From: Caldisericota bacterium
GTDB taxonomy: Bacteria > Caldisericota > Caldisericia > UBA6126 > JAGPKI01
Reading direction: 5' to 3'
NCBI GenBank assembly: GCA_052034135.1
Contig: JBPOJC010000013.1
Coordinates: 1-60,537, forward strand
Length of the DNA: 60,537 nucleotides
How positions within the stretch are numbered: position 1 is the stretch's first letter; each line of letters opens with the position of its first letter. Position numbers and translations under genes: made by a program. Below the pieces are notes generated by a model. The model had not been told where the DNA came from, made no database searches, and worked only from the letters and a program-made list of their open reading frames with translations. This document shows positions 15,625-37,758 of the stretch, in pieces.

Positions 15625-15627
15625 AAG

Positions 15628-16221
15628 ATGGTCTGGATCCCCAATTAAGTTAGGGATGACAGTTGTGTAGATTTTGGGGTTGACAGTTGTGTTGAGTTCG
15701 GGGATGACAGAGGCGGTCATTCCCGCGATTCTTCTTGTCATTCCCATGAAAATGGGAATCCAGGAATAAAAAGAAGGATAGATCCTCGATAGAAGAATTC
15801 GAGGATGACAAGAAACAGACAGGAATGTCTATTCTACAAAAAAATGATTAGATGAGGAGATTCTTCGCTTCGCTCAGAATGACGGTGCGTGGCACTGAGA
15901 TTCCTTAGGACATGTGCGAAAATACCGCACTTCAGAAAGACAAGCTAAATGTCATTCCCGCGAAAGCGGGAATCCAGGGGAAAAAAGAATATAGATCCCC
16001 GATAAAGACATTCGGGGATGACAGTTGTGTGTAATTGAGGATGACAGTTTTTAGTTTGGATCCCCGATAAAAGATTCCAGGGATGAGAGTTGTGTGGAGT
16101 TCAGGGATGACAAATACTGAGATTCTTAAGGACGTATGCGAGAATTCCGCACTTCAGAATGACGGTGCGTGGCACTGAGATTCCTCAGTAAGAGTGCGAA
16201 AAGACCGCACCTCAGAAAGAC
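15628..16221 (+). repeat. mosaic hairpin-module repeat array R1
   Basis: Starts 3 nt after the DegT stop codon. Module order by eye: B, b-half x2, A (duplicated form), B, C, D, E, A, B, b-half, B, b-half, E, E. Module definitions are in the findings. Confidence 0.9.
15951..15977 (+). repeat. reference copy of module A (8-bp stem, GAAA loop)
   Basis: gtcATTCCCGCgaaaGCGGGAATccag. The identical core occurs 11 times in the window, always in this orientation. Confidence 0.95.
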
Positions 16222-16270
16222 ACCCTTCCTCCTCTTCCTTTACAGAAAAACTCCAAGGCAAGCTTAGAAG

Positions 16271-16299
16271 TTGAACACTACTACTAATTGGAGTAAAAT
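16271..16299 (+). promoter_or_regulatory. sigma70-type promoter of the MntA-HepT cassette (conserved promoter module)
   Basis: TTGAAC (16271-16276), 17-nt spacer, TAAAAT (16294-16299). It lies inside a 57-bp segment that is 55/57 identical to 22001-22057. Confidence 0.5.
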
Positions 16300-16373
16300 C
16301 ATTACTAATAAAAGGGTTTTAAAATTGAGAGATTTATAAATCCTTTGCCGTTTGAAAGTAAGGAGTAATGTAA

Positions 16374-16673
16374 GTGAAAGATTTAAGCAGAGACAAGCTT
16401 GAAGAGATAAAAGATATAATCATTAAAGTGTTAAAAAAGCATAATGTAAAGAAGGCTGCTATCTTTGGTTCGGTAGCAAGAGGAGAAGCCACTGAAGAGA
16501 GTGATATAGATATAGTAATTGAATTTGAAGGTAGAAAAAGTCTGTTAGACCTTGTAGATTTGAAACTGGAACTTCAGGAATTATTGGGGAAAAAGGTGGA
16601 TGTTATTACCTATAATTCTATTAATCCACTACTTAAGGAACAAATACTAAACGAACAAAAAATACTTCTGTGA
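16374..16673 (+). CDS. mntA: nucleotidyltransferase antitoxin (MntA-type)
   Basis: 99 aa. GSVARGEATEESDIDIVI is the minimal NTase G-S..(D/E)xD motif. Overlaps the downstream DUF86 ORF by 4 nt. Confidence 0.85.
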   Translation: MKDLSRDKLEEIKDIIIKVLKKHNVKKAAIFGSVARGEATEESDIDIVIEFEGRKSLLDLVDLKLELQELLGKKVDVITYNSINPLLKEQILNEQKILL

Positions 16674-16915
16674 AAAAAGATGCAGTAATATTCTTAGAGC
16701 ATATATTAGAATGTATTAATTTAGTTGAAGAATATACTGAAAATAATACATTAGAGGATTTCTTTAGCTCAATACAACTTCAGGATTCAATTATCCGTCG
16801 AATAGAAATAATTGGTGAAGCAGTTAGAAATATTCCAGAGGAAATAAAGTATAAACATCCAGAAATACCATGGAAGGAAGTAGCGGGTATGCGATCAATT
16901 TATGCTTCTTTATAG
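16670..16915 (+). pseudogene. hepT: HepT (DUF86/HEPN) toxin, 3'-truncated before the Rx4-6H motif is completed
   Basis: IIGEAVRNIPEEIKYKHPEIPWKEVAGMR is a typical DUF86 core. After GMR the sequence diverges (SIYASL, then stop), and the expected N.L.H.Y is missing. Confidence 0.75.
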
Positions 16916-17106
16916 AATTGCAGAAATTCTTCTCTGGATACATTTATTTGATTACATATAGTTCTAAGTGTAGAACCTTTGATTCTTTTATGATTTGGGA
17001 TTGTTAAAGGTGTTTTTGAACCATCATCATTGAATCGTACCATTGAAATATGATTACCTTCTCGGACAATGGTAAAGCCTAATTTCTCAAGTGTTTTTAT
17101 TACTTT
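16900..17106 (-). pseudogene. hicA: HicA/YcfA-like toxin without a usable start (in-frame TAA at 17107-17109)
   Basis: Minus-strand translation is KVIKTLEKLGFTIVREGNHISMVRFNDDGSKTPLTIPNHKRIKGSTLRTICNQINVSREEFLQFYKEA. Upstream in frame is ..FPKDAPK, then a stop. Absent from the ORF track because it has no Met. Its stop codon (16900-16902) lies inside the truncated hepT ORF. Confidence 0.65.
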
Positions 17107-17135
17107 TTACTTTGGTGCATCTTTGGGAAAATTCT

Positions 17136-17351
17136 TTAAACAGAAACTTCTGCAACAAAAGCTTCAAGAATATTATAAGAATCTATTACATCATCTGAGA
17201 ATGTCTCAATATGAAATTTAATTGCAGATTTAACATCTTCAACAGCTTCTTCGTATGTATCACCTTCACCGATAACAACACCTTTTATTCCAACGGGATA
17301 TGCTACATAGCCATCTGGATGTTTTTCAACAACAATTTTTATTTCTCTCAC
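17136..17351 (-). CDS. hicB: HicB-family antitoxin (UPF0150 fold)
   Basis: 71 aa. DGYVAYPVGIKGVVIGEGDTYEEAVEDVKSAIKFHIE is typical of short HicB proteins. Located directly upstream of the HicA-like remnant. Confidence 0.8.
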   Translation of the reverse strand: MREIKIVVEKHPDGYVAYPVGIKGVVIGEGDTYEEAVEDVKSAIKFHIETFSDDVIDSYNILEAFVAEVSV

Positions 17352-17499: not shown

Positions 17500-17850
17500 A
17501 AAGCGAAGAGAAATACAGAGATTCTTCGCTTCGCTCAGAATGACCCCAATCGTCTTCTTGAGAGAGCATATTATTATTTTACGACCGAAGGATCTCCTTT
17601 TCTCAGAAATGCAAAAATGAGGAGATTCTTCAGGACGTGTGCGAGAATACTGCACTTCAGAATGACAGCGCATGGCACTAAGATTCCCTCAGGGCGTGTG
17701 CGAAAATACCGCACTTTGGAATGATGGGGGACAGGGCACGGATATACCCTCGTGACGGATGCAATAACGCTGCACTTTGGAATGACAGCAGGCGCGTTAC
17801 GGAGCATACTACCACGAATTGCAGAATTTTACGCCTTGCAAGAGTTTTAA
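17500..17850 (+). repeat. mosaic hairpin-module repeat array R2
   Basis: Module order D, G, E, E, then two degenerate E-type units. All ORF-track ORFs here (17452..17807, both strands) are translations of repeats. Confidence 0.85.
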
Positions 17851-18023: not shown

Positions 18024-18293
18024 ATGGATAATAAAATAACTTTGGAGCAAGCAGAGCAATTGGTGGCACAATTAACATTACAGGAACAAATTAAACTAAT
18101 AGCACATATGAGTGAATGGTTAAGTAAAATGGGTTTATCAGAGAAATCTGAAGAAATTTGGCGACAAAGTTATGCCACACAAGTGGGAGCATTTCTGAAG
18201 ATGAGCGAAGAAATGGCAGCTGAAACTATAAGAGAAGTGGACTCAACAGAAGACATTCGTCAAATACGTGAGGAGAGAACATTAAGACTATGA
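18024..18293 (+). CDS. putative antitoxin of the downstream PIN toxin
   Basis: 89 aa, acidic and helical. 4-nt overlap with the PIN ORF. The call rests on position only. Confidence 0.45.
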   Translation: MDNKITLEQAEQLVAQLTLQEQIKLIAHMSEWLSKMGLSEKSEEIWRQSYATQVGAFLKMSEEMAAETIREVDSTEDIRQIREERTLRL

Positions 18294-18724
18294 CTGAGCA
18301 ATGCATAGATGCCAGTATTGCGGTCAAATGGGCAGTAAAAGATGAACCTTTTCGTTCTAAGGCACATGAACTTCTCAGAGATGCTGGAATAAATGGAATT
18401 AGACTTATTGCACCACCAATTTTTATCAGCGAAATAGATAGTGTCATTAGAAAACGTGTTTTTGATAAAAAAATGATAGCTATTGAGGCATAGAAAGCAT
18501 ATGCTATTCTGGATTTAGCACCTGTAGAGATTGTAAATATAATCTGTGTTCGACAACGTACCCGCGAGATAGCAGAGCAGTTTAACCAGCGATTCGTTTA
18601 TGATGCCACGTATGCTGCGCTTGCTGAATTGCGTAATTGTGAATTTTGGACTGCGGATAAAACTTTTTATGATGAGGTAAAAACAAAATTGACATTCGTA
18701 AAATATCTTCCAGATTATCCATAA
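18290..18724 (+). pseudogene. vapC: VapC-type PIN toxin interrupted by an in-frame TAG (18491-18493)
   Basis: N-terminal part is IDASIAVKWAVKDEPF. After the amber codon the same frame continues KAYAILDLAPVEIV...YDATYAALAELRNCEFWTADKTFY, with the conserved acidic residues of PIN domains, to the stop at 18722-18724. Confidence 0.75.
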
Positions 18725-18822
18725 TTCTAAGGGAGCTTATACAGTAACCAACAAAATATACTTAGAGGAATTATAGGTAGTCTGAATAGAAAATTCTGCA
18801 AAAGATATTACAACTCTCTCCT

Positions 18823-18841
18823 GTCACTCTGAGGGAGCGTA
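18823..18841 (+). repeat. isolated 5' half of a G-type repeat module
   Basis: gtcactctgagggagcgta. It marks the point where homology of the 18902 gene to its paralogue at 34193 is lost. Confidence 0.6.
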
Positions 18842-18901
18842 TTTAATGTTCATACAACTTATAGTTACTGGGATTTAATTACTACTGTTAAACATCCAAT
18901 T

Positions 18902-19117
18902 ATGCAAGGAAAGGAACTTGAAATAAAAGAAACTTTGCAATCTCCAGATGAAGTGAGGAGAAGTCGTATAGATGCAGAAATATATTTATTTTATAAATCA
19001 ACAGATTTAAATCAGTTTTTATGTGCTGTAGTGAAAAGAGAAATAAATGAAGGTTTCTTGGTTACGGCATATATAACTGGTAAAATTAAAGAAGGTGATA
19101 GAATATGGACCAAATGA
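18902..19117 (+). CDS. small toxin-like protein, 5'-truncated paralogue of 34193..34507 (partner of DUF2283)
   Basis: LQSPDEVRRS..LFYKS..FLCAVVK..FLVTAYITGKIKEGDRIW parallels IQNPDIIVRS..LFYRY..YLCIVVK..FIITACFTDTIKKGEVLW. The upstream in-frame sequence (..WDLITTVKHPIM) is still homologous to ..HIEADHPEM, then runs into a repeat fragment. Confidence 0.6.
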   Translation: MQGKELEIKETLQSPDEVRRSRIDAEIYLFYKSTDLNQFLCAVVKREINEGFLVTAYITGKIKEGDRIWTK

Positions 19118-19317
19118 AAGTTTTTTATGATAAAAAAGGAAATACTTTAACTGTATGGTTTGGAAATCCTCAAGATGAATTTATAGCTGAGGAAACAGGT
19201 GAAGAAGTAATATTAATAATGGATAAAAATAGAAAAGTTATTGGTTTTGAGAAGTTGAATTTTATGATTCCTTCCCCTGAGAAGCTGGAAATTGCTTTTG
19301 AAGCAGTAAACGAATAA
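19105..19317 (+). CDS. DUF2283-family protein (putative antitoxin)
   Basis: MKVFYDKKGNTLTVWFGNP....EETGEEVILIMDKNRKVIGFE matches the DUF2283 pattern. One of three paralogues in the window. Confidence 0.75.
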   Translation: MDQMKVFYDKKGNTLTVWFGNPQDEFIAEETGEEVILIMDKNRKVIGFEKLNFMIPSPEKLEIAFEAVNE

Positions 19318-19325
19318 ATATTTAT

Positions 19326-19915
19326 GTCATTCCAAGCGATTGCGGGAATCCAGAGAGTTTTAGAAGTATGTTTAGAAATAAGGTCTGGATCCCCGATAAA
19401 AGATTTCGGGAATGACAGTGAAGGTCATTCCCGCGAAAGCGGGAATCCATGATTAGAAATTGGCCTGGATCCCCGATAAATACATTCGGGGATGACAGTT
19501 TTTACTTTGGATCCCCAATCAAGTTGGGGATGACAAAAAACAAACGATTCTGGATCCCCGATAAAAGATTTCGGGGATGACAGTTGTGTGGATTTCAGGA
19601 ATGACAAAAAACAGACAGGAATGTCTGTTCTACACTGAAAAGACAAAAGAGGAGATTCTTCGCTACCGCTCAGAATGACGGAGTAGGTGTCATCCTGAGG
19701 AAGTGTATCTTCATTTTGCTTCGTAAGGATCTCCTGGTGTGTCATTCCCGCGAAAGCGGGAATCCAGTAAAAAAAAGAATATGGATCCCCGATAAAAGAT
19801 TTCGGGAATGACAAGGACGGATACTGAAATTCTTCAGGACGTGTGCGAAAAAACCGCACTTCAGAAAGACAAAAAAGGAAGGGGAGCGTAAGCAACCGGA
19901 AGAACCTCTCCTCTT
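19326..19915 (+). repeat. mosaic hairpin-module repeat array R4
   Basis: Module order: A-variant, linker, B, A, linker, B, B-variant, B, b-half, C, D, G, A, B, E, partial G. Confidence 0.9.
19610..19629 (+). repeat. reference copy of module C (8-bp stem, GGAA loop)
   Basis: AACAGACAggaaTGTCTGTT, normally followed by ctacactgaaaag and then a D module. Confidence 0.9.
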
Positions 19916-19943
19916 TTTCTTTTTTAAAGTTATACTTTTTAGT

Positions 19944-21136
19944 TTATCCAATCCAGTGCCAGGGGATAGCAACTATCTTTGAATGCATCCATCTTATAGA
20001 ATCCCCTGCATATATGAGTATCCCTCTTACAGTCTCTGGATAGTCCTCAATAAAGGATAGCATATTTTTAATGTCATTATAAGTTGGATTTTTAGTAAAT
20101 TTTACTTCAAATATAAATATCTTCCTACCTTGCTCTAAAACAAAATCAACTTCTTTCCCTGTAAATGCTCTCCAGTAGAATATATTTCCTTTTGGGTTCA
20201 TTAGCTGCGCATAAACCTGCAAGTGGAGAAAAACCATTGTTTCAAAGAATCTACCTACTTCATTAGCATTTTCTAATTGGTCAAAACTCTTTTAGACTTA
20301 CTTGAGAAATATCCAGGAACTCTTTTGATAATGTTTGATACTTCCAATAATTTTATATATCTGTAAACTGTAGGTTGGCTGATTCCTGAATCTTGTGCAA
20401 TTCCTGTTTGATTCAGTATGTTTCCTGTCCTTATAGCTAAGGAATCCATAACTTTCTTAAAATCTATTAGAGATTCAATTTGCGATAAGTCTCGTAAATC
20501 TCTTTCAATGTAAGTCTTTATATAACTTTCCCACCAGAGAAGTATATCTCTTTCATTCTTAATATGTATTAGTGGTGGCATAAAACCTTTAAATATAAAC
20601 GGCAAGGGGTCAATTACTTCTAAGGTTTGACCATCAACTTTAAAATTTTCTTTTAAAAGTAAAGAAAAATTTCTCTCCCCGCTTGTGTTCTCAATTATTT
20701 CACCGTATGTAAAAGGGTACATTTCAAAATATATAGCTCTACCTGCAAGACTTTCACTTATGTTCTTCATAAGTAGTAGATTAAACGACCCTGAAAGTAA
20801 GAATCGCATAGTTCTATTTGTCGTGTCAACTGTAAGTTTCACAGCTGAAAGTATTTCTGGAGCTTTTTGAACCTCATCGATTATTATTTTATCGCTACCT
20901 ATCCATAAGGAGTATGGATCAATCTTTGCCTGTTCGAGAGTAGAAAAGTCATCTAAATTAATATATTTGAAATCAGGAAATTCATTTCTTAAAAATGTAC
21001 TTTTTCCTACCTGTCGTGCACCTGAGATTATAATCACAGAGAAACTTTTTATAGCTGACTTTACTAATGGACCTATTAATCTCTTTTTGTAAATCATTTT
21101 GTAATTTAATTCATTATCTGAATGAATATTATTCAT
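19944..21136 (-). pseudogene. AAA ATPase with DUF4143 C-terminal domain, split by a frameshift near 20265-20280
   Basis: The N-fragment (20273..21136) has Walker A GARQVGKST. The C-fragment (19944..20237) has ..FTGKEVDFVLE..IFEVKF typical of DUF4143. The two frames overlap around aaaagagttttgacc. Confidence 0.75.
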
Positions 21137-21194: not shown

Positions 21195-21975
21195 CTTAAG
21201 CGAACGAAGGATTTCCTTAAGGTCATTCAAAGCGATTAAGGGAATCCAAGGAAAAAATAATCTGGATCCCCAATCAAGTTGGGGATGACAGTTACGGTCA
21301 TTCCCGCGAAAGCGGGAATCCAGGATTATAAATTGGTCTTGATCTCTTATAAATAGATGCGATGACAAGAAACAGACAGGTTTGTCTGTTCTACAAGAAG
21401 AAAAGAATTAGAAGAGGAGATTCTTCGCTACCGCTCAGAATGACCCCAATCGTCTTCCTGAGGGAGCGTAAGCGACCGAAGGATCTCCTTTTCTAAGAAA
21501 TGCAAAAATGAGGAGATTCTTCAGTACGTGTGCGAAAAGACCGCACTTCAGAATGACACCACCCCCGTCACCCTGAGGAGCATTTTCTCAGCGACGAAGG
21601 GTCTCCTTCTTGATGTTACTTATAAAACCAAATAATGGTCTGGATCCCCGATAAAAGATTTCGGGGATGACAGTTTTTAGTTTGGATCCCCGATAAAAGA
21701 TTTCGGGGATGACATTTGTGTGGAGTTCGGGGATGACAAAAAACAGACAGAAATGTCTGTTTTACACTGAAAAGACAAACGAGGAGATTCTTCGCTTACG
21801 CTCAGAATGACGGCGCGTGGCACTGAGAATCCTCAGGACGTGTGCGAAAATACCGCACTTCAGAATGACTGTGGGGTGGGGGTCATCCTGAGGAGCACAC
21901 TTTTCAGTGACGATGGGACCTATGCCCCCCATGTCATCCTGAGGGAGCGTAAGCGACCGAAGGATCTCCTCTCTT
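21195..21975 (+). repeat. mosaic hairpin-module repeat array R5
   Basis: Module order: A-variant, B-variant, A, B (degenerate), C, D, G, E, F, linker, B, B, b-half, C, D, E, F-variant, G. Confidence 0.9.
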
Positions 21976-22003
21976 TCAAAAAATTCTAAAACAAGTTTAA
22001 AAG

Positions 22004-22032
22004 TTGAACACTTCTACTAATTGGAGTAAAAT
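22004..22032 (+). promoter_or_regulatory. sigma70-type promoter of the HicBA cassette (conserved promoter module)
   Basis: TTGAAC (22004-22009), 17-nt spacer, TAAAAT (22027-22032). Near-identical to the promoter at 16271-16299. Confidence 0.5.
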
Positions 22033-22157
22033 CATTACTAATAAAAGAGTTTTAAAAGCAAAGATTTGTATACAATAGGAAAAAGTGAATTTATATACAT
22101 AATGATGGTTAACATTATTAAATTTAAGCAAGAGGACAAATTAATGGAGGACAAAAA

Positions 22158-22364
22158 ATGAGACAAGTTATTATATATCCTGGTGAAGATGGATATTGGG
22201 TAGCTGAATGTCCCAGTTTGCCAGGTTGCGTTAGTCAGGGGAAAACTAAGGAAGAGGCTATTGCTAATATAAAAGAAGCTATTAATGGATATATCGCAGC
22301 TCTAAAAGAAGATAACCTTCCTATTCCTGAAGAACAGTTTGAAACATTAGTAGTAGTTTTGTGA
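22158..22364 (+). CDS. hicB: HicB-family antitoxin
   Basis: 68 aa. DGYWVAECPSLPGCVSQGKTKEEAIANIKEAI is the canonical short HicB sequence. Confidence 0.9.
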   Translation: MRQVIIYPGEDGYWVAECPSLPGCVSQGKTKEEAIANIKEAINGYIAALKEDNLPIPEEQFETLVVVL

Positions 22365-22582
22365 GCAAGTTACCGATAATTTCTGGATCTGATTGCATAA
22401 AAGCATTAGGTAAGATTGGCTTTTACCCAAAACGGCGAGAGGGTAGCCATATAATTCTACGTCGAGACAATCCTTTCACGCAGACAGTTGTTCCTGACCA
22501 CCAAACATTAGATAGAGGAACTTTACGTGCTATTATTAGACAGACTGGTCTTAGTATTGATGAATTTATCAAGTTATTGTAA
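22361..22582 (+). CDS. hicA: HicA-family mRNA interferase toxin
   Basis: 73 aa. SGSDCIKALGKIGFYPKRREGSHIIL...DRGTLRAIIRQTGLSIDEF is the typical HicA/YcfA pattern. 4-nt overlap with hicB. Confidence 0.9.
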   Translation: MSKLPIISGSDCIKALGKIGFYPKRREGSHIILRRDNPFTQTVVPDHQTLDRGTLRAIIRQTGLSIDEFIKLL

Positions 22583-22590
22583 TATACACT

Positions 22591-22608
22591 CTCGGAATAT
22601 ATTCCGAG
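22591..22608 (+). terminator. 18-bp perfect palindrome after hicA (possible terminator hairpin)
   Basis: ctcggaata/tattccgag lies 9 nt after the stop codon, followed by gagcattttctt. It replaces the 5' part of an F-type module. Confidence 0.3.
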
Positions 22609-23130
22609 GAGCATTTTCTTAGCGAAGAAGGGTCTCCTCTTTTTGCCTCATTGTGTGTATCAAACCCAGATTTAAATTAAAAAAAGAAACAGTCAGGTTT
22701 GTCTGTTCTACGAGACGAAAAGAATTAGAAGAGGAGATTCTTCAGGACGTGTGCAAAAATACCGCACTTCAGAATGACAGTAGGGTGGGGTCATCCTAAG
22801 GAGCACACTTTTCAGTGACGAAGGGTCCTATGCCCCCCATGTCATCCTGAGGGAGCGTATCTTTATTTTGCTTCGTAAGGATCTCCTGGTGTGTCATTCC
22901 CGCGATTCTTCTTGTCATTCCCGCGAAAGCGGGAATCCAGAGAATTTTAGAAGTATGTTTAGAAATAAGGTCTGGATCCCCGATAAAAGAGTTCGGGGAT
23001 GACAAAAAACAAATGAGGAGATTCTTCGCTGATGCTCAGAATAACGAGATGGGCACTAAAATTCTTCAGTACGCATGCGAAAAGACTACACTTTGGAATG
23101 ACTGTGGGGTGGTGAGAAGATTCTTCGAAA
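22597..23130 (+). repeat. mosaic hairpin-module repeat array R6
   Basis: Module order: 5'-truncated F, C, E, F-variant, G-variant, A (duplicated form), linker, B, D-variant, degenerate E. Confidence 0.85.
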
Positions 23131-23170: not shown

Positions 23171-23569
23171 TCATTTTTTTAGAAACGACAAAATATTATT
23201 GTATAGTTTATCTGTCGCATTGTTGATTTTCTCTATATCTTCTTTGCTCAATGTATAATTAGGAAGCAAAGCAAAATCAGCTGGATATCGAGAATCTATA
23301 TAAATTGAATTTAATTCTTCCATTAGTGGCATTAAATCTTTAAACTTCTCTTTTATCGAAACAGGCAATAAAGTATAAAGTCTTATAATGTCATGACTTT
23401 TCGGAGGTAATATATCATTTTCATTCAATAATGCTTTTAGTAACTTTTCTATTGATTGTTGACAATGAAAAGCAAAAACTTTTTCTAAGTCTTCTATGTT
23501 GCTTAAAACATTTTTAGCTTTATAGTCTTGAGCTGCAAACTTAATCCAGGAAGCTGTTGTTATTTTCAT
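23171..23569 (-). CDS. HEPN-domain protein (toxin partner of the NTase)
   Basis: 132 aa. FAFHCQQSIEKLLKALL...PPKSHDIIRL is the classical HEPN helix pattern. 4-nt overlap with the upstream NTase. Confidence 0.8.
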   Translation of the reverse strand: MKITTASWIKFAAQDYKAKNVLSNIEDLEKVFAFHCQQSIEKLLKALLNENDILPPKSHDIIRLYTLLPVSIKEKFKDLMPLMEELNSIYIDSRYPADFALLPNYTLSKEDIEKINNATDKLYNNILSFLKK

Positions 23570-23907: not shown

Positions 23908-23984
23908 ACAAAATAATATTATACATTAATATCGTAGAAATATATAAGCCAATTTACAACAAGTTGAACAGTGATAAAGTATAT

Positions 23985-25998: not shown

Positions 25999-26016
25999 GA
26001 TTATATTATAGCACTT

Positions 26017-27528: not shown

Positions 27529-27547
27529 TTATCAATTTATTTTAAAA

Positions 27548-28873: not shown

Positions 28874-28874
28874 A

Positions 28875-29347: not shown

Positions 29348-29370
29348 GGGTGCGACGCATTAAACAATTC

Positions 29371-30032: not shown

Positions 30033-30036
30033 AGCT

Positions 30037-30804
30037 ATGCTTGATTACAGCTTAATTGCCTCCTACTTTCCTCCTGAATTAAGAGCATTCAAAAGAAACA
30101 TTTTGAGAGAGTATTTGCAATATAAAACGCTTGAAGCAATCTATAACTCAAAATACGGAAATAAATTTGTCTTCATCGGAGGAACATGCCTCCATATCGT
30201 GTATGGGAACAATCGCTTCTCAGAAGATCTTGATTTTGATGTATTTGATCTTTCAATGGAGGAGTTCGAGTCTGTTAAATTAATACTCAATAAAGCTTTT
30301 AAATTAGAAGGATTGAATGTTGAAATAGACCACAATTACGATAATATTTTTCATTTGAAACTTAAATTTACAGATATTCTTCAGAATTATGGGATAACAA
30401 AGCATAAAGAAGAAAAATTAACTTTGAAAATCGATTCAGAAGTTCAGAGTTATAAATATACAAAAAACTTCTATCTCCTGAACAGATTTGATGTTTTTAC
30501 AAATATTATTGTTGCACCAGCTCCATTATTGCTTGCGAGGAAAATAATAACTCTTTTAGAGCGAGTAAGACCGATGGGAAGAGATTTTTATGATATTATG
30601 TTTCTCTTAGGCATGACAGAACCAGATATGGATTATATTGAAAGTAAAACTGGAATAAAAGACAAAAGAATTTTGATTGAGAAATTAATACAACATTGCA
30701 GTTTATTTGATTTTGACAAATTAGCAAACGATGTAAGACCATTTCTTTATAAGCCTGAGAATTCCTTAAGGGTGAAATATTTCCTGGATTATTTAAAGCA
30801 ATAA
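30037..30804 (+). CDS. abiEii: AbiEii/AbiGii-family nucleotidyltransferase toxin (DUF1814)
   Basis: 255 aa. FIGGTCLHIVYGNNRFSEDLDFD is the family-defining NTase motif. Confidence 0.85.
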   Translation: MLDYSLIASYFPPELRAFKRNILREYLQYKTLEAIYNSKYGNKFVFIGGTCLHIVYGNNRFSEDLDFDVFDLSMEEFESVKLILNKAFKLEGLNVEIDHNYDNIFHLKLKFTDILQNYGITKHKEEKLTLKIDSEVQSYKYTKNFYLLNRFDVFTNIIVAPAPLLLARKIITLLERVRPMGRDFYDIMFLLGMTEPDMDYIESKTGIKDKRILIEKLIQHCSLFDFDKLANDVRPFLYKPENSLRVKYFLDYLKQ

Positions 30805-30850
30805 AGTGAAGAAACGAGCAGAAATCAAGAAAGTTGTAAGGACAAAAGAA

Positions 30851-31525
30851 TTCTGGATCTTCGATAAAAGAGTTCGGGGATGACAAGGAGAAATACTGAG
30901 ATTCCTCAGTACGTGTGCGAAAATACCGCACTTCGGAATGAATGTGTTGGAGCGAGGATGACACCGCTCCCCGTCACCCTGAGGAGCGCTTCTTTTAGCG
31001 ACGAAGGGTCTCCTCAAGGTCATTCCCGCGAAAGCGGGAATCCAGAGAGTTTAGAAGTATGTTTAGAAATAAGGTCTGGATCCCCGATAAAAGAGTTCGT
31101 GGATAACAAAGAAAGTAACAGACAGGAATGTCTGTTCTACGCTGAAAAGTTCGGATGAGGAGATTCTTCGCTTCGCTCAGAATGACGAAAAAGGAAAGGG
31201 AGAGTATCTTTATTTCAGCGATCGAAGGAACTCCTTCTTTTATAATACCTATCAAAACAAAAACTGGTCTGGATCCCCGATAAATACATTCGGGGATGAC
31301 AAGTTACCTTCTGGATCCCAGATAAAAGAGTTCGGGGATGACAAAAAACAAATGAGGAGATTCTTCAGGATGTGTGCAAAAAGACGCACTTCAGAATGAC
31401 TGAGAGGCGGTCATTCCCGCGAAAGCGGGAATCCAGAGAGTTTTAGAAGTATGTTTAGAAATAAGGTCGGGATCCTCGATAAAAGATTTCGAGGATAACG
31501 GGAAAAAAGAGGAGCGAGGAATAAC
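30851..31525 (+). repeat. mosaic hairpin-module repeat array R11
   Basis: Module order: B-variant, E, F, A, linker, B, C, D, G, linker, B, B, D/E, A, linker, B-variant. Confidence 0.9.
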
Positions 31526-31698: not shown

Positions 31699-33117
31699 AT
31701 GTTTATAGGAAGAGCAAATGAGATTAGTAAACTTAATGAATTATATGCAAGCAATAAATTCGAGTGTGTTATTATTTATGGTCGTAGACGTGTTGGAAAG
31801 ACAACTTTAATTGAAGAATTTTGCAAAGGAAAAAAATCAATCTATTTTGTAGGAATAGAGTCAACAATACAGAATAATCTTGAAAATTTAAGTAAAAGTA
31901 TTTTTTCATTAATCACTCCTAATTTGAGTCAATATCCTTATTTTGATAGATTCGACAAAGCACTTGATTATATTTATGAGAAATTTAGTGGCGAGCGAAT
32001 TATATTAATTTTGGATGAGTATCCTTACCTTGCTTCATCTGATAAGTCTGTTTCCTCAATATTACAGAATTATATAGATCACAAATTTAAAAATAGTCAG
32101 TTATTTTTAATACTCTGCGGGTCTTCAATGAGTTTTATGGAAAATCAGGTTCTGGGTTACAAAAGTCCTCTTTATGGTCGAGGTACAGCGCAATTTAAGA
32201 TAAAACCTTTTGATTATTTCGATTCTTCAAAGTTTTATAATTCCTTTTCACACGAGGATAATGCCATTATATACGGTATAACTGGTGGTATCCCACAATA
32301 TCTTGAATTATTTGATGATAAAAAGAGTTTGAAAGAGAATATTATAAATAACGTTCTTGATAAAACAGCTTATTTATTTGAAGAACCGGGTAATTTATTA
32401 AAACAGGAATTAAGAGAACCTCATATTTACAACGGAATCATAAGGGCAATTGCTAAAGGAGCTTCTAAATTGAATGAAATCGCTACAAGTGCTGGATTAG
32501 AAACAAGTGTATGTTCAGTATATATTAAATCTTTAATAGCTCTGAATATTGTAAAAAAGGAAAATCCAGTAATAGATGGAAAAATCAGGAAAAGTATTTA
32601 TCGTATTGAAGATAATTTGTATAATTTCTGGTATAGGTTTATTTCTGAAAATATCTCTTCAATAGTAATTGGAAATACCAAAACACTTTATGATAATGCA
32701 ATAGCTCCATATATTAGTGATTATATGGGAAATATTTTTGAAAAAATGTGTCGTGAGTATTTAATGCGGCTAAATTACAGTAACCTTTTACCATTTCACT
32801 TTTTATCATTAGGAAGATGGTGGGGAACTGATCCAAAGAATAAAAGGCAAATTGAGATTGACATTGTTGCAGTATCAAAATCAGAAAAGAAAGCAATATT
32901 TGCTGAATGTAAATACAAAAATGAGTTAGTTGGAATGAAAGTACTAGAATATTTAGTTGAAAAAAGTGAAACTATTGGTTATAGATTTCTAAATAAATAT
33001 TACTACTTATTCTCAAAGTCAGGGTTTACAAAAACTCTTAAACTTTATGCTTTAGAGAACACCAAAGTCAAGTTAATTAATCTGGATATGCTCTATAATT
33101 TAGAACTATCACATTAA
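31699..33117 (+). CDS. ATP-binding protein (archaeal-type ATPase domain + DUF234)
   Basis: 472 aa. FIGRANEISKL....IIYGRRRVGKTTLI (Walker A) and ILILDEYPYL (Walker B). The C-terminal part is typical of DUF234. Confidence 0.8.
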   Translation: MFIGRANEISKLNELYASNKFECVIIYGRRRVGKTTLIEEFCKGKKSIYFVGIESTIQNNLENLSKSIFSLITPNLSQYPYFDRFDKALDYIYEKFSGERIILILDEYPYLASSDKSVSSILQNYIDHKFKNSQLFLILCGSSMSFMENQVLGYKSPLYGRGTAQFKIKPFDYFDSSKFYNSFSHEDNAIIYGITGGIPQYLELFDDKKSLKENIINNVLDKTAYLFEEPGNLLKQELREPHIYNGIIRAIAKGASKLNEIATSAGLETSVCSVYIKSLIALNIVKKENPVIDGKIRKSIYRIEDNLYNFWYRFISENISSIVIGNTKTLYDNAIAPYISDYMGNIFEKMCREYLMRLNYSNLLPFHFLSLGRWWGTDPKNKRQIEIDIVAVSKSEKKAIFAECKYKNELVGMKVLEYLVEKSETIGYRFLNKYYYLFSKSGFTKTLKLYALENTKVKLINLDMLYNLELSH

Positions 33118-33134
33118 TAAGATATAGATTATAG

Positions 33135-33590
33135 ATGTTTAGCAAAAAAATTATTTCCTGGGTGGTTGTTGTATTATGGATGCTACTAATATTTAATTTA
33201 TCGTCTCAAGTTGGAGAACAATCCAATCAATTCAGTACTGGAATTACAATAATTATCGTTAGAGCAATTGAACAAGTAGTACCAGAAGCAAATATAGATA
33301 TTTCTTGCTTGAATGGAGTTATTAGAAAAATTTCTCACTTCTTGATTTATTTAGTGCTTGGATTTTTGGTTATGAACGCACTCCTAAAGGACTCTAAACC
33401 AAGAAGTAAATATTTTGTTGTTTTGGCTCTGTTCATTTGTGCACTTTATGCAATATTAGATGAAGTACATCAACTGTTTGTCCAGGGTAGAGGAGCGAAC
33501 TTAATCGATGCAATAATTGATACCTCAGGGAGCATTGTAGGGATAGGTATAAAAATGTTATTGATCCCCGATAAAAGATTTCGGGAATAA
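33135..33590 (+). CDS. VanZ-family membrane protein
   Basis: 151 aa with 4 TM segments. ISHFLIYLVLGF and DEVHQLFVQGRGANLIDAIIDTSG motifs. The last 9 codons and the stop are supplied by a B-type repeat module. Confidence 0.75.
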   Translation: MFSKKIISWVVVVLWMLLIFNLSSQVGEQSNQFSTGITIIIVRAIEQVVPEANIDISCLNGVIRKISHFLIYLVLGFLVMNALLKDSKPRSKYFVVLALFICALYAILDEVHQLFVQGRGANLIDAIIDTSGSIVGIGIKMLLIPDKRFRE

Positions 33591-34112
33591 CAAGGAGAAA
33601 AGAGGAGATTCCTCAGGACGTGTGCAAAATACGCACTTCGGAATGACAAAGGGCGGCACGGTGATTCCATCGTTACGTGCGCAACAATACCGCATTTTAA
33701 GAATGTCGAAGAAACTTCATGATTCAACAGGAGCGAGGAATCACATTGCCCGCCGTCATCCTGAGGGAGTATCTATCCATAAATCGTAAGAACTCCAACC
33801 ACCCACGTCACCCTGAGGAGCATATCTGAAAGCGACGAAGGGTCTCACACCCATCGTCTTCCTGAGGGAGCGCAAGCGACCGAAGGAACTCCTTCTTTTA
33901 TAATACCTATCAAAACAAAAACTGGTCTGGATCCCCGATAAATACATTCGGGGATGACAGTTGTGTGAATTTCGGGGATGACAAAGAAAGAACAGACAGG
34001 AATGTCTGTTCTAAACTTAAAAAATTAGATGAGGAGATTCTTCGCTTCGCTCAGAATGACGGCGGGGTGATGAGGAGATTCTTCGCTAACGCTCGGGATA
34101 ATAAAAAACGAA
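33562..34112 (+). repeat. mosaic hairpin-module repeat array R12
   Basis: Module order: B-variant, E, E-variant plus the h segment (also at 35660-35722), G-variant, F, G, linker, B, b-half, C, D, D-variant. Confidence 0.9.
34021..34112 (+). repeat. left copy of the 92-bp direct repeat flanking cassette 34137-34704
   Basis: aaaattagatgaggagattcttcgcttcgctcagaatgacggcggggtgatgaggagattcttcgctaacgctcgggataataaaaaacgaa. 89/92 identical to 34804-34895. Confidence 0.9.
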
Positions 34113-34136
34113 ATGAAAATTATTTATGTATAAAAA

Positions 34137-34165
34137 TTGCATACTGCTGCAAATTTGTGTAAAAT
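34137..34165 (+). promoter_or_regulatory. sigma70-type promoter of the third toxin-DUF2283 cassette
   Basis: aaaaTTGCAT (34137-34142), 17-nt spacer, TAAAAT (34160-34165). Confidence 0.45.
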
Positions 34166-34192
34166 TTCACCAAAAGGAGAAAGCAAAAATAT

Positions 34193-34507
34193 ATGAAATG
34201 GTTCAGGGACATTCATAATCGGCAGATTTGCTTAACAGATGAAAGGCATGAACACATTGAGGCAGACCATCCAGAAATGTTTGGGCAATTTGATAAAATC
34301 GAGCAAACTATACAGAATCCTGATATAATTGTTAGATCGAAGACAGACTCATATGTTGAGCTATTTTATAGGTATTATGATGTAACGCCTGTTAATGGAA
34401 AGTATTTATGTATTGTAGTTAAAATATCAGATGATAATATATTTATTATAACTGCATGTTTTACTGATACGATAAAGAAAGGAGAAGTGCTATGGAGAAG
34501 GAAATAA
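34193..34507 (+). CDS. small toxin-like protein (full-length paralogue of 18902..19117), partner of DUF2283
   Basis: 104 aa with His-rich ERHEHIEADHPEM. It overlaps the downstream DUF2283 gene by 16 nt, as in the other two pairs. Family not recognised with certainty. Confidence 0.55.
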   Translation: MKWFRDIHNRQICLTDERHEHIEADHPEMFGQFDKIEQTIQNPDIIVRSKTDSYVELFYRYYDVTPVNGKYLCIVVKISDDNIFIITACFTDTIKKGEVLWRRK

Positions 34508-34704
34508 AAATCTGGTATGACAAAGAAGGGGATTATCTTGAAATTCTTTTCGAGTGCAAAAAGGGATACTTCAGAGAAACAGAGAATGATGCAGTAATGG
34601 AGAAAGTAGATGAAGAGGGCAATATCATTGGATTTTCAATATTAAGAGTAAGCGAATTGAATGAGAAGCCACTCTCAATAGCTTTAAAAAGCAAATCTAT
34701 TTAA
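34492..34704 (+). CDS. DUF2283-family protein (putative antitoxin)
   Basis: 70 aa with IKIWYDKEGDYLEILFE....DEEGNIIGFSIL. Confidence 0.8.
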   Translation: MEKEIKIWYDKEGDYLEILFECKKGYFRETENDAVMEKVDEEGNIIGFSILRVSELNEKPLSIALKSKSI

Positions 34705-34760
34705 GAAAGTATTTCAGATTACACATAATTTATATTAATTGAATAAATTTTCTTATATTC

Positions 34761-34933
34761 AGAGATGACAAGAAACAGAAATTTTTGTATGTTCTACACT
34801 GAAAAAATTAGATGAGGAGATTCTTCGCTTCGCTCAGAATGACGGCGGGGTGATGAGAAGATTCCTTGCTAACGCTCGGGATAATAAAAAACGAAGAGGA
34901 TGCATCTTTGCGGCGACGAAGGATCTTTCACTC
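34761..34933 (+). repeat. mosaic hairpin-module repeat array R13 (includes right copy of the 92-bp direct repeat, 34804-34895)
   Basis: Module order: B 3' end, degenerate C, D, D-variant, G-type 3' part. Confidence 0.9.
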
Positions 34934-34958
34934 TTATTCCTCGTATTTATAGTTGATT

Positions 34959-35216
34959 CTATTGATATATATCTCTGCGGTGTCCAATATGAAGTATCGT
35001 AATTATTCTTTGTTTATCATCTATTTCATAAATTACTCTGTAATCACCAATCTTAATTCTCCAGCCATTTCGATTAGACAATTTTAAGCACCCATACGGA
35101 CGAGGTTCATCAGCAAGCTTACGGATTGTGTCTCGAATATTTTCATATATATTTTTTGGTAAATTACTCAATTCCTTTTGTGCACAGCGTAAAATATAAA
35201 TACTAAATTTTTGCAC
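34959..35216 (-). CDS. relE: RelE/ParE-family toxin
   Basis: 85 aa. NGWRIKIGDYRVIYEIDDKQRIITILHIGHRRDIY is the canonical RelE/ParE C-terminus. Confidence 0.85.
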   Translation of the reverse strand: MQKFSIYILRCAQKELSNLPKNIYENIRDTIRKLADEPRPYGCLKLSNRNGWRIKIGDYRVIYEIDDKQRIITILHIGHRRDIYQ

Positions 35217-35413
35217 TACTTTGTTTCAATTTCAGAAATCGCCTGTTCAAATGGAATTGCTTCGTCATTTGATGCCTTCGCTATATCATATGCATAAATG
35301 GATTCTAACTCTTCGAGCTCTTCAAGTAATTTAAAGTATTCCTCGATATCTAATAAGACTCCTATGCGATCACCTTTTTCGTCAGTTACATATCGCTCTT
35401 TTAATTTAATCAT
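35216..35413 (-). CDS. antitoxin partner of the RelE/ParE toxin
   Basis: 65 aa, acidic. Its stop overlaps the toxin start by 1 nt. Confidence 0.6.
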   Translation of the reverse strand: MIKLKERYVTDEKGDRIGVLLDIEEYFKLLEELEELESIYAYDIAKASNDEAIPFEQAISEIETK

Positions 35414-35659
35414 TCTCTCTTATTATACCTCTTAAAAATTTTTGATGTTTGCTTATTTATACGACTTAACAAATAAAATTATTCTTCAATATTATTTTTC
35501 ACATTTATTCTATTAAATAATCTTTAAGATGCAAGATTCTTAGCGCACACTTTGAAAGTTTATATCCTCTTTTCAAAAGAATTTTTATAAAATAAATTTA
35601 TAAAGTAAAACGCTTTCATTATTGGTATAAACATGGTGATTCTTTAGTAACAGTATGAT

Positions 35660-36308
35660 AATACCGCAATTTCACAATGTCGAAGAAACTTCATGATTCA
35701 ACAGGAGCGAGGAATGACACCACCCCTGTCACCCTGAGGAGCATCTTTCCATAGACTGTAAGAACTCCAACCACCCCTGTCACCCTGAGGAGCATCTTTC
35801 CAGCGACGAAGGGTCTCACACCCCTCGTATTCCTGAGGGAGCGCAAGCGACCGAAGGAACTCCTTTTTTTATAATACCTATCAAAACAAAAATTGGTCTG
35901 GATCCCCGATAAAAGATTTCGGGGATGACAAAGAAAGAACAGACAGAAATGTCTGTTCTACACTGAAAAGATTAGATGAGGAGATTCTTCGCTTCGCTCA
36001 GAATGACCCACCCCCGTCACCCTGAGGAGCACTCATTTTAGCGACGAAGGGTCTCCTTCTTTTATAATACCTATCAAAACAAAAATTGGTCTGGATCCCC
36101 GATAAAAGATTTCGGGGATGACAAAGAAAGAACAGACAGAAATGTCTGTTTTACACTGAAAAGATTAGATGAGGAGATTCTTCGCTCAGAATGACGGGGT
36201 GGGGGTGTTGAGATTCCTTGCTAACGCTCAGAATGACGAAAAAGAGCAGGGAGCATATTTTGCTTCGTAAGGATCTCCTTTGATATTAAAGCGATTACAG
36301 GAATCAAG
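35660..36308 (+). repeat. mosaic hairpin-module repeat array R14 with internal 193-bp tandem duplication
   Basis: Module order: h segment, F, F, G, [linker, B, C, D], F, [linker, B, C, D], D-variant, G-variant, A remnant. 35867-35995 and 36060-36188 differ at one position by eye. Confidence 0.9.
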
Positions 36309-36364
36309 ATAATAATAGAGAAATAATAAGATGTTAAGGATCAGAATGATGAATTATGTGCAGA

Positions 36365-36733
36365 TTATTGCAATATAGAATTAATATAATTGAGTAATTC
36401 TAAAAGGTCTTCATTTATTAATTGCCATATAATGTTAATTTTTAAGCCTTCGTAGTCATGAACTATTCTATTACGAAGACCTCTTACTCCTTGCCAATTT
36501 ATTTTGTCAAACTGATTAATGAAATCTGAGTCAAGTTGTTGCACTAATTCACCAATTTGGCTTAAATTAAAAATACAGGCTTCTTGTGTTTTACTATCAT
36601 TTGAAAAAGAAAGATAATCCATACCTTTTGTATAGTCAATTACTTTTTGGCAGTAACCTCGCATTTTCTCTAAAGTGATTTTAGTTTTTTCTTTCATAAA
36701 TAATAATTCCTTCATTTTTGATAATATAATCAA
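36365..36733 (-). CDS. hepT: HepT (DUF86/HEPN) toxin, apparently intact
   Basis: GVRGLRNRIVHDYEGLKINIIW carries the Rx4HxY motif. The real start is probably an internal Met (36715 or 36697) overlapping the mntA stop. Confidence 0.85.
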   Translation of the reverse strand: MIILSKMKELLFMKEKTKITLEKMRGYCQKVIDYTKGMDYLSFSNDSKTQEACIFNLSQIGELVQQLDSDFINQFDKINWQGVRGLRNRIVHDYEGLKINIIWQLINEDLLELLNYINSILQ

Positions 36734-37001
36734 TCTTAGAATTTGTTATAATCTGGTCAGTGCTAATAAGGTCTACTTCTTTATTTAATGCTTGAACTAA
36801 ATCTTCGAGAAGTGCATAATAATCAAAACCTTTTAGTTGGCCTTTACTGTCTATCACCAAATCAACATCACTGTTTGGTTCTGCCAAACCTTTAGCATAT
36901 GAGCCAAAGAGAATAACGCAATAAACTGGTAGGTTTTTAACAATATTGGCAATTTTTTCTTTTAATTCTGTAATAGAGTAAACTTTATCCTGCAGTTCCA
37001 T
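36681..37001 (-). CDS. mntA: nucleotidyltransferase antitoxin (MntA-type)
   Basis: 106 aa with LFGSYAKGLAEPNSDVDLVID. Confidence 0.85.
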   Translation of the reverse strand: MELQDKVYSITELKEKIANIVKNLPVYCVILFGSYAKGLAEPNSDVDLVIDSKGQLKGFDYYALLEDLVQALNKEVDLISTDQIITNSKIDYIIKNEGIIIYERKN

Positions 37002-37264
37002 TAAACTCCTTACATATGAATATTATTAAAAAACTGCATATTTTTATATAGTTATTAATAAAATCACAATAATTAATCTTTACTATTCTACGATAAGAAA
37101 TAGTCAAATTCAAGAATTAAATTTTACTAAAAATTGGTATGTTGTAGAGATGTATAGATATATCTGTGTGGTAATTATAAGAGAGTGACTTTTTTAGCGA
37201 TATTGGTTTTATTTTCTTACTTATTTAGCCATTTTAGGCATTAACAAAAGATATAAAAAATGAA

Positions 37265-37758
37265 AGAGGAGATTCCTTCAGGACGTGTGCAAAAGACCGC
37301 ACTTCGGAATAACACCACCCCTGTCACCCTGAGGAGCATCTTTCCAGCGACGAAGGGTCTCCTCAAGGTCATTCCCGCGAAAGCGGGAATCCAGAGAGTT
37401 TTAGAAGTATGTTTAGAAATAAGGTCTGGATCCCCGATAAAAGATTTCGGGGATGACAAGGAGAAATACTGAGATTCCTTAAGGACTTGTGCGAAAAGAC
37501 CGCACTTCGGAATGACATCACCTCTGTCACCCTGAGGAGCATCATTTCAGCGACGAAGGGTCTCCTCAAGGTCATTCCAAGCGATTGCGGGAATCCAGAG
37601 AGTTTAGAAGTATGTTTAGAAATAAGGTCTGGATCCCCGATAAAAGATTTCGGGGATGACAAGTTACCTTCTGGATCCCCGATAAATACATTCGGGGGTG
37701 ACATTTGTGTGGAGTTCGGGGATGACGGGAGAAAAGAGAGGAATGTCTATACTACATC
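37265..37758 (+). repeat. mosaic hairpin-module repeat array R15 (last array, about 170 bp from the pheT stop)
   Basis: Module order: E, F, A, linker, B, E, F, A-variant, linker, B, B, b-half, degenerate C. Confidence 0.9.

Follow-up and report, generated by a model that had tools for sequence, protein, structure and literature searches.

A toxin-antitoxin and defence island beside pheT in a Caldisericota bacterium with NIME-like arrays of Ssn-type hairpin repeats

How can an array of toxin-antitoxin (TA) and abortive-infection genes resemble an integron without having its attachment sites or its recombinase? This question is raised by a 22-kb island in a contig of a Caldisericota bacterium (JBPOJC010000013.1 of assembly GCA_052034135.1; the whole 60,537-nt stretch that was analyzed is called the window). 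The island begins directly after a DegT-like aminotransferase open reading frame (ORF; stop codon included, 14509-15624, +) and extends to pheT (37928-40354, -), and within it TA and defence cassettes on both strands alternate with GC-rich blocks of short repeats. An initial annotation, made from the letters alone, had recognized this arrangement, which proved to be real, and suggested an integron-like or otherwise undescribed cassette-shuffling system. Our analysis leads to another answer. The spacers are NIME-like mosaic arrays of Ssn-type hairpins, which belong to the family of the Neisseria Transformation Sequence (NTS)/SRM and dRS3 repeats, and we consider it fairly probable that the island is a TA/defence hotspot in which these arrays favor the turnover of cassettes through recombination of directly repeated copies. 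The outcome is integron-like, namely a variable cassette array, but without attC or IntI.

Co-oriented repeat blocks and their common hairpin frame

Self-comparison of the island delimited 14 repeat blocks with lengths of 152-958 bp and a sum of 7583 bp, separating 13 cassette intervals (15 blocks and about 14 cassettes in the initial annotation); the GC-richer nature of the blocks was confirmed (GC fraction 0.39-0.49 in the non-coding blocks vs ~0.25-0.33 in the coding cassettes). Each block is a mosaic of 2-19 modules. Direct repeats cover 7517 block bases and inverted repeats only 116, all of which belong to the near-palindromic module D. The cassette intervals are oriented in both directions, eight on the plus and five on the minus strand. 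Several block-crossing junctions were reproduced in independent assemblies (L003, L117, L147 and L146; L-numbers are our designations for loci outside the window), with L147 being 100% identical to positions 33905-36106.

Using blastn-short with seven consensus sequences (modules A-G), we detected 111 copies on the plus strand and a single one on the minus strand, a D module with flipped loop at 28177-28198. The same search gave no copy in the 38 kb of flanks within the window. If every block had chosen its orientation independently, agreement of 14/14 would have a probability of ~2^-13. The motif GRRTGAC ends nearly every block unit and occurs 76 times on the plus strand of the island vs three times in the flanks; the numbers for GTCAYYC, its reverse complement, are 42 and 2.

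A comparison of the modules with each other revealed that the families are inverted relatives. The reverse complement of B (rc(B), GTCATCCCCGAAATCTTTTATCGGGGATCCAG) resembles C (GTCATTCCCGCGAAAGCGGGAATCCAG), and rc(E) and rc(A) (GTCATTCTGAG/GAAG...AGAATCTCC) resemble F (GTCACCCTGAGG...AGGGTCTCC). All families have the frame GTC-arm-loop-arm'-C in common, and the basic hairpin defined by this frame was found at 34 sites on the plus and 54 sites on the minus strand; anchors placed at random within the blocks gave ~3%. Because the frame reads in both directions, it is the sequence subfamilies and composites such as F-C-spacer-B that are co-oriented, not the basic hairpin. The strict co-orientation and the lack of reverse-complement copies described initially therefore apply to modules defined by their sequence and to composites, but they break down at the level of the hairpin. 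When folded as single-stranded DNA (ssDNA), module C reached -9.0 kcal/mol (z -6.2), B -7.9 (z -3.9) and D -6.8 (z -4.4), and the C-spacer-B doublet formed a three-way junction closed by GTCAT/ATGAC. Module G is arranged in brief tandem arrays with one unit every 24 nt (..GGGGATGACAGTTGTGTGGAGTTC..) at 15654-15709 and 24104-24159 (+) and corresponds in essence to a reiterated 3' half of module B.

Relationship to known repeats and to integrons

Module C links the blocks to published repeats. It follows the dRS3 pattern ATTCCC-N8-GGGAAT, which is present in 12 copies vs 0 expected, all of them within the mosaic blocks; the strict pattern is missing from the blocks starting at 17506, 26697 (which has a variant), 29071, 33530, 34758 and 35660. 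Moreover, module C agrees at 27/28 positions with the NTS, CGTCATTCCCGCGMAVGCGGGAATCYRG (consensus taken from PMC11893778), the 5' C being T or G here. The NTS is bound and cut by SsnA, a 94-aa GIY-YIG nuclease, exclusively as ssDNA and on one strand only; cleavage depends most on the three bases GTC that precede the palindrome, and binding depends most on the C directly 3' of the palindrome (PMC11893778). Exactly these two determinants, the GTC and the 3' C, are the invariant elements of all modules in the island. The SRM pattern HGTCWYN(0-2)YYVSBRHN(0-5)WNVSBRGN(0-2)RNCYNB gave six matches, each to a module C on the plus strand; rc(B) misses it through loop length alone, and the type-II modules miss it outright. 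The modules belong to a cross-phylum repeat family with the frame GTC-arm-loop-arm'-C, and this shared Ssn-type frame accounts for the GTCAY/RTGAC ends of the units. Insertion of an IS200/IS605-type element 3' of its target was also considered as a source of the ATGAC ends and was rejected, as no Y1 transposase was found among the scanned ORFs of the window and of related contigs.

The idea of an undescribed repeat type is thus not supported, since module C is the published NTS/dRS3 and the multi-module blocks fit the description of NIMEs (PMC1797815). In both cases, ATTCCC-N8-GGGAAT hairpins are interleaved with other short repeat families in arrays, with clustered dRS3 units separated by RS repeat families of 50-150 bp. 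Both kinds of array are located beside variable accessory genes, are GC-richer than their surroundings, differ in length between strains, are targeted by an IS110-type recombinase and have been proposed to promote the exchange of the genes they flank. The differences concern, first, the host, a Caldisericota-like anaerobe instead of Neisseria (in 2007, NIMEs were stated to be absent outside this genus; PMC1797815), and secondly the flanked genes, which are TA/abortive-infection genes here and surface antigens in Neisseria. Furthermore, the island has 13 cassettes in one regular array with all composites co-oriented, and many of its modules are type-II hairpins (GTC-AYYCT...AGRRT-C) without the dRS3 core.

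With the NTS/SRM-Ssn systems (PMC11893778), the island shares the similarity of module C to the NTS and the conservation of GTC and 3' C in all modules; the NTS-ssn-NTS architecture may have its counterpart in a gene for a 98-aa GIY-YIG protein with modules on both sides, which was found on sister contigs and is absent from the window. In contrast, the published account is of clusters surrounding genes and mentions neither cassette arrays nor TA content, and most modules of the island miss the strict SRM pattern because of longer loops or type-II arms. Similarities to REP/BIME/REPIN-RAYT systems include the short extragenic hairpins, the mosaic clusters, the inverted doublets (C-B is comparable to a REPIN) and a cognate small nuclease gene bordered by its own repeats. 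However, the associated enzyme is of the GIY-YIG and not of the HUH/Y1 type, and the 5' motif is GTCAY instead of a GTAG-type tetranucleotide; RAYT/Y1_Tnp had no match among the scanned window ORFs or the ORFs of related contigs (Pfam-scanned or with precomputed annotation). Rfam gave 0 matches over the island, both at the gathering threshold and at E<=1, and a literature search with peptide strings typical of translated repeats retrieved no matching paper.

When exact copies of module B were sought, with each species represented by one genome, at least 105 loci were found. Among the matches listed, the hosts include Omnitrophota, Desulfuromonadales, Calditrichota, KSB1, Endomicrobium, Pedobacter, Planctomycetales, Nitrospirota, Zetaproteobacteria and Ignavibacteria as well as the cultured Iodobacter and Deefgea. 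In these organisms the repeat is sparse (1-4 module matches per 8 kb), intergenic and present on both strands of the same contig, with opposite-strand copies at most 2.5 kb apart in Iodobacter. Again among the matches listed, 84 B copies have a GTCAYYC site, mostly that of a C-type hairpin, within the preceding 95 nt, which results in a C-B inverted doublet of ~62-110 nt. Perfect complementarity of the 8-nt arms was observed for 67 of the 83 distinct doublets, distributed over eight arm sequences (CCCG/CGGG, CCGG/CCGG, CCTG/CAGG and others), and in 66 of these 67 the 3' arm is directly followed by C. Since the arms covary and the C is retained, the repeat is a conserved, structured element found across phyla, and the window is special in the density and organization of its copies. 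ORF clustering around the C-B doublets (105 among the matches listed) yielded no recurrent neighbor gene and only one GIY-YIG ORF. In scans of viral contigs, module E had two matches and module A none.

In several metagenome-assembled genomes (MAGs) of Desulfuromonadales or 'delta proteobacterium' (L021, L040, L048-L051, L066, L088 and L091), the C-B doublet forms the core of a larger MITE-like element with outer inverted repeats of ~25 nt (ctgattagcaYcaatcttccgc ... gcggaagaatagtgctaatcag) and many copies per genome. An Actinomycetota MAG (L052, 2334-2408) contains two B-type hairpins facing each other as a perfect palindromic pair, that is, a doublet of B alone.

These data also bear on the integron interpretation, according to which the island would be a sedentary chromosomal integron or a CALIN (clustered attC sites without an integrase, for which IntI beside the array is not required); its attC sites would have diverged, and the integrase would be encoded elsewhere in the genome. 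Co-oriented structured repeats between short, mostly TA cassettes with genes on either strand are indeed what integrons look like, and the strain variants described below, in which a cassette is missing together with one repeat, also fit. Nevertheless, we regard this interpretation as very improbable. Inverse core pairs RYYYAAC...GTTRRRY at a distance of 45-150 nt occur at four places (eight on both strands), compared with 5.8 +/- 3.8 on both strands in local shuffles, and touch only 2/14 blocks. Instead of one imperfect hairpin of 57-141 nt per cassette, the borders are mosaics of many modules; module C is NTS/dRS3 and not attC, and many phyla have the hairpins as single copies, oriented either way, in ordinary intergenic DNA. 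In agreement with the initial annotation, no tyrosine recombinase (Phage_integrase) was detected among the scanned window ORFs (at least 60 aa outside the island; the cassette ORFs inside it), and none appears in the gene tables of related contigs. In addition, unlike in integrons, a common promoter-like module precedes the first gene of at least two cassettes, and cassette turnover appears to be homology-dependent.

Associated enzymes and probable turnover of the cassettes

A metagenome scan with module A retrieved 13 short contigs, and further contigs were obtained by protein look-ups. On L124 (=L137), L136, L138 and L139 we found a 98-aa single-domain GIY-YIG protein (PF01541, E=1.3e-16). 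The spacing of its Tyr9/Tyr20/Glu67, read from the sequence, equals that of Tyr6/Tyr17/Glu64 in SsnA, and we classify it as a putative Ssn-like nuclease. The gene is bordered on both sides by modules A and F in L136, L137 and L139; the resulting unit of ~680 bp has its edges at these modules, is 96-98.5% identical between contigs and has a different neighboring cassette in each of them, namely ATPase (L136), DUF433 (L137) or MazF (L139). The protein family is very large (7946 matches at E<=1e-10, including Nostoc, Bacteroidota and Caldisericota), and a PDB search produced only marginal matches to UPF0213. A Caldisericota MAG (L151, JAYELD010000148.1) has two genes for 95-aa GIY-YIG proteins at 3500-4300 and 9150-9900, flanked by repeats that end in GCAATGAC and represent a further arm variant, GTC-ATTGC...GCAAT-C, which is another nuclease-repeat pairing with covaried arms. 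Both genes adjoin genes for very large Glucodextran_B/Cu_amine_oxidN1 proteins.

The second type of enzyme on the sister contigs is an IS110-family transposase. In L130 (PF01548+PF02371; NCBIfam 'IS110 family RNA-guided transposase'), the insertion sequence (IS; 386-1952) is inserted inside a module C, with ...GTCAT on its left and ATTCCCGCGAAAGCGGGAATCCAG on its right. L152 and L153 contain two more elements of the same clade, whose transposases have 73% and 55% amino acid identity to that of L130; both junctions of the element in L152 are at GTCAT^T and the right junction in L153 is at a GTCAT-type hairpin. The IS ends are conserved across this clade, and the elements have a non-coding leader of ~300 nt. 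Beside valS, a truncated copy of module B is adjoined by a fourth IS110 element. Insertion at one defined module position, GTCAT^T, resembles the IS110/IS1111 elements that target hairpins such as REP, dRS3 and attC, with the difference that the elements here are passengers of the arrays on sister contigs, outside the window. In L123 (11220-11430), the C-terminal fragment of an IstB-like protein (IS21 helper) directly follows a repeat block that is also the border of an IS110 element; IS remnants seem to gather in the blocks.

On both sides of every cassette in the island there are co-oriented direct repeats, which are 46-294 nt long and 71-99% identical. Cassette 10, for example, is flanked by an 85-nt repeat with 98.8% identity (31217-31301 / 33875-33959), and cassette 11 by a D-E-E' repeat with 88% identity (33971-34112 / 34758-34895). 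L129, which is 96-97% identical to the window, lacks the cassette at 34114-34757 together with one copy of its flanking repeat, and the VanZ cassette is joined to the ParE cassette through a single D-E-E' copy; L146 and L147 retain the cassette. In L146, the 193-bp unit that is a tandem duplicate in block 13 is single-copy. A third type of variation was observed for L124 and L127, which share 1091 bp of a DUF433 cassette with 99.7% identity and diverge exactly at the end of module F, beyond which L124 continues with the ssn unit and L127 with a PIN cassette. Altogether, three contexts were found for the ssn unit and two for the DUF433 cassette, and array length, content and adjacent genes vary between strain contigs (L129, L146, L132, L124 vs L127). 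Strains thus differ by 'cassette plus one repeat' and by the copy number of repeat units, with breakpoints in the repeats, and the initial intuition of cassette shuffling is supported. Further TA cassettes (Phd/YoeB, MazF/RHH, PIN, DUF2283/PBECR) are present on other module-bearing contigs, where the modules are always mutually co-oriented (19/19 in L125). L111 (ERZ941555 k127_343352, 2674 bp) contains the ATPase-VanZ cassette in circularly permuted form, joined at the 85-nt repeat; it may stem from an excised circle, from a tandem duplication or from a loop made by the assembler. Look-ups of exact proteins (pheT, DegT, ATPase, AbiEii) gave little information about neighbors, since contigs break at the repeats; the ParE look-up was the only one that crossed repeat blocks.

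The locus was also compared between relatives. PheS of the window is 53-60% identical to proteins of Caldisericia, Caldisericaceae and Caldisericum exile, its best named relatives, and identical window genes were found in anaerobic-digester metagenomes. A relative with 80% PheS identity keeps the synteny on the far side of pheST but has, downstream of pheT, one intact AAA_14/DUF4143 ATPase followed by smpB and 0 modules. At 88% PheS identity, pheT is followed by a ~500-bp block of B-/C-type hairpins, oriented relative to pheT as in the window, and then by unrelated genes without any cassette. Because these relatives lack the cassette array at pheT, the island is lineage-specific, and it is located where a relative has a bare repeat block. 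tRNA or tmRNA genes were searched as possible integration sites and none was found.

Recombination between direct repeats would explain this variation. Cassettes would be gained, lost, duplicated and reshuffled as 'cassette plus one repeat' by RecA-type or slippage-type deletion and duplication, by Campbell-type re-insertion of excised circles or by replacement with incoming DNA that bears the repeats. Such events would regenerate direct repeats whatever the orientation of the enclosed genes, and long inverted copies in close proximity would be unstable; we propose that the composites are co-oriented, with genes on both strands, for these reasons. The hairpins themselves would probably be spread and maintained by Ssn-like or IS110-type enzymes acting on ssDNA, and exploited by IS110 elements. 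For NIME arrays, a recombination hypothesis including a 'specific recombinase' has been put forward (PMC1797815).

According to another explanation, which we rate as less probable, the hairpins only accumulate selfishly in the dispensable AT-rich intergenic DNA of a TA-rich region, with local segmental duplication causing co-orientation and without any contribution of the repeats to cassette movement. The dispersed, REP-like occurrence of the same family elsewhere agrees with this, as do the tandem duplication of a unit, the decay of some cassettes and the gathering of IS fragments in the blocks. It fits less well that breakpoints of cassette presence and absence lie inside the flanking direct repeat and that identical cassettes have differing neighbors with breaks at module edges. 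Moreover, the 80-88% PheS relatives have no island and one of them keeps the bare repeat block at the site, and direct repeats of 85-140 nt with >88% identity are per se a substrate for recombination.

A dedicated site-specific system, in which an IS110-family (bridge-RNA) recombinase and/or the Ssn-like nuclease moves module-flanked cassettes at GTCAT-hairpins, appears quite unlikely to us. IS110 enzymes join their own ends to a target and are not known to join two targets to each other, which counts against such a role. Cassette borders do not coincide with one particular position in one particular module, the breakpoints observed fall inside long stretches of homology as predicted by homologous recombination, and the window encodes no such enzyme. 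On the other hand, three IS110 elements of the same clade (L130, L152 and L153) abut GTCAT-type hairpins, and the ssn gene travels as a module-flanked unit. Precedents are the dRS3 repeats of Neisseria, into which filamentous phages (Nf) integrate via a phage-encoded transposase, and the 'specific recombinase' proposed for NIMEs (PMC1797815). A further idea, unlikely as well but worth stating, is that the array is a recombinase-free functional analogue of an integron working on ssDNA: the Ssn-like nuclease would trim ssDNA, either incoming or exposed by replication, at GTC-hairpins, and the module-cassette-module pieces would anneal to and recombine into any array with the same co-oriented modules. 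If this were true, the capture, shuffling and exchange of TA/defence cassettes could extend across strains and even phyla, with the C-B doublet, identical across phyla, as common currency.

Several observations weigh against our preferred explanation, a hotspot with turnover by direct-repeat recombination. Modules A, E and F fail the strict SRM pattern (rc(E) by hand; rc(A) and rc(B) without a minus-strand match; F not among the six plus-strand matches) and fold no better than shuffles. The Ssn-like gene is absent from all six frames of the window, neither IS110 nor another recombinase was found among the scanned window ORFs, and the enzymes are putatively linked to the source genome through sister contigs from similar digester metagenomes. 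The evidence for polymorphism comes entirely from short metagenome contigs, in which repeats may cause chimeric joins, and L111 in particular may be an assembler loop. Finally, both the route of recombination and its role as the cause of co-orientation are what we infer from these patterns.

Cassette genes, neighboring features and implications

The gene content assigned initially was mostly borne out by Pfam, which identified four MntA/HepT or NTase/HEPN pairs, one HicAB, AbiEi/AbiEii, ParE/RelB and VanZ (Table 1). Of the DUF4258/PBECR+DUF2283 pairs, two are complete and the third has a DUF2283 match only; the two ATPases are AAA_14/DUF4143 (split) and ATPase_2/DUF234. The PIN match is weak and below the Pfam threshold, and a second HicAB and a VapBC, which had also been proposed, were without Pfam significance. 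The split ATPase of cassette 3 is probably a pseudogene, because intact 435-aa versions occur in L136 and immediately downstream of pheT in the relative L140. A 47-nt module, AAGTTGAACACTNCTACTAATTGGAGTAAAATCATTACTAATAAAAG, is found twice on the plus strand, at the 3' ends of blocks 1 and 4, upstream of the unrelated MntA/HepT and HicBA cassettes (both +); judged by its letters (TTGAAC ... TACTAAT), it looks like a portable promoter.

The sole transposase gene in the window is located 12 kb upstream of the island and encodes an IS4-like DDE transposase (1963-3570, +; PF01609, DDE_Tnp_1, E=3.9e-14). The ORFs beside it (125-1540 and 3610-4428) have no Pfam match. On the other side of the island, a 605-aa ORF (54484-56301, +) combines LytB/IspH (residues 4-285) with MiaA/IPP transferase (330-571) in an apparent gene fusion.

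Table 1. Positions of the island, its NTS copies, repeat blocks and cassettes in the window.
Feature	Position	Strand	Description
Whole island	15625-37927		14 repeat blocks interleaved with 13 cassette intervals
NTS 27-nt consensus GTCATTCCCGCGAAAGCGGGAATCCAG	within 15951-37394	+	11 copies with <=1 mismatch over 27 nt, 0 expected; starts 15951, 19424, 19741, 21297, 22914, 24038, 24624, 27760, 31019, 31410, 37368
Block 1	15625-16324	+	700 bp; B, G, G, C', C, B, D, E, A, C, B, G, B, G, A, A; 3' end is promoter-like module 16268-16314
Cassette interval 1	16374-17351		MntA-type nucleotidyltransferase 16374-16673 (+), HepT fragment 16670-16915 (+); Pfam
Cassette interval 1, small HicB-like ORF	17136-17351	-	No Pfam match
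Block 2	17506-17790	+	285 bp; E, F-type, A, A, A'
Cassette interval 2	18024-19317	+	Two small ORFs without Pfam match (18024-18493); 71-aa ORF and DUF2283 (18902-19317)
Block 3	19325-19873	+	549 bp; three C-B doublets: 19326-19416, 19424-19496, 19741-19812
Cassette 3	19944-21136	-	AAA_14/DUF4143 ATPase, split into 287 and 97 aa
Block 4	21199-22057	+	859 bp; 3' end is promoter-like module 22001-22047
Cassette 4	22158-22582	+	HicB/HicA; Pfam
Block 5	22606-23116	+	511 bp; C-B doublet 22914-23003
Cassette 5	23171-23907	-	HEPN 23171-23569, nucleotidyltransferase 23566-23907
Block 6	23979-24936	+	958 bp, longest; C-B doublets 24038-24110, 24624-24713; tandem 24-nt G units
Cassette interval 6	25142-26581	-	HepT-like_2 25142-25609, nucleotidyltransferase 25606-25998, nucleotidyltransferase fragment 26345-26581
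Block 7	26697-26917	+	221 bp; A, A', F, C-variant
Cassette 7	27087-27528	+	DUF4258 toxin-like ORF and DUF2283
Block 8	27537-28222	+	686 bp; C-B doublets 27760-27832, 28020-28104; minus-oriented D 28177-28198
Cassette 8	28532-29081	+	PIN-like ORF (weak Pfam match) and 68-aa ORF
Block 9	29071-29348	+	278 bp; E-like, F, F-type, B, G, A-like
Cassette 9	29427-30804	+	AbiEi/AbiEii
Block 10	30837-31514	+	678 bp; includes 85-nt repeat 31217-31301
Cassette 10	31699-33590	+	ATPase_2/DUF234 ATPase 31699-33117, VanZ 33135-33590
Block 11	33530-34113	+	584 bp
Cassette 11	34114-34757	+	PBECR2/DUF4258 34193-34507, DUF2283 34492-34704
Block 12	34758-34909	+	152 bp; D-like, E, E'
Cassette 12	34959-35413	-	ParE 34959-35216, RelB-like antitoxin 35216-35413
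Block 13	35660-36279	+	620 bp; 193-bp tandem duplication 35852-35993 / 36045-36186, 97%
Cassette 13	36365-37001	-	HepT 36365-36733, MntA-type nucleotidyltransferase 36681-37001
Block 14	37255-37756	+	502 bp, adjoins pheT; C-B doublets 37368-37457, 37571-37660

The repeat family, its nuclease and the NIME arrays were already known; new are the host phylum, the regular array of 13 TA cassettes, the co-orientation and the polymorphism that resembles that of integrons. When NIME arrays were described 25 years ago, they were presented as a peculiarity of Neisseria, and their role in gene exchange is still a hypothesis; the Ssn nuclease family was characterized only in 2025. The NTS sequence is now seen in a distant, uncultured anaerobe, and the sister contigs add IS110 targeting and an Ssn-like gene. 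For surveys of integrons, this means that co-oriented structured repeats between TA cassettes are insufficient to call a locus integron-like. The island offers a tractable case outside pathogens in which it can be asked whether Ssn-type arrays are platforms for cassette exchange and why TA/defence genes concentrate there.

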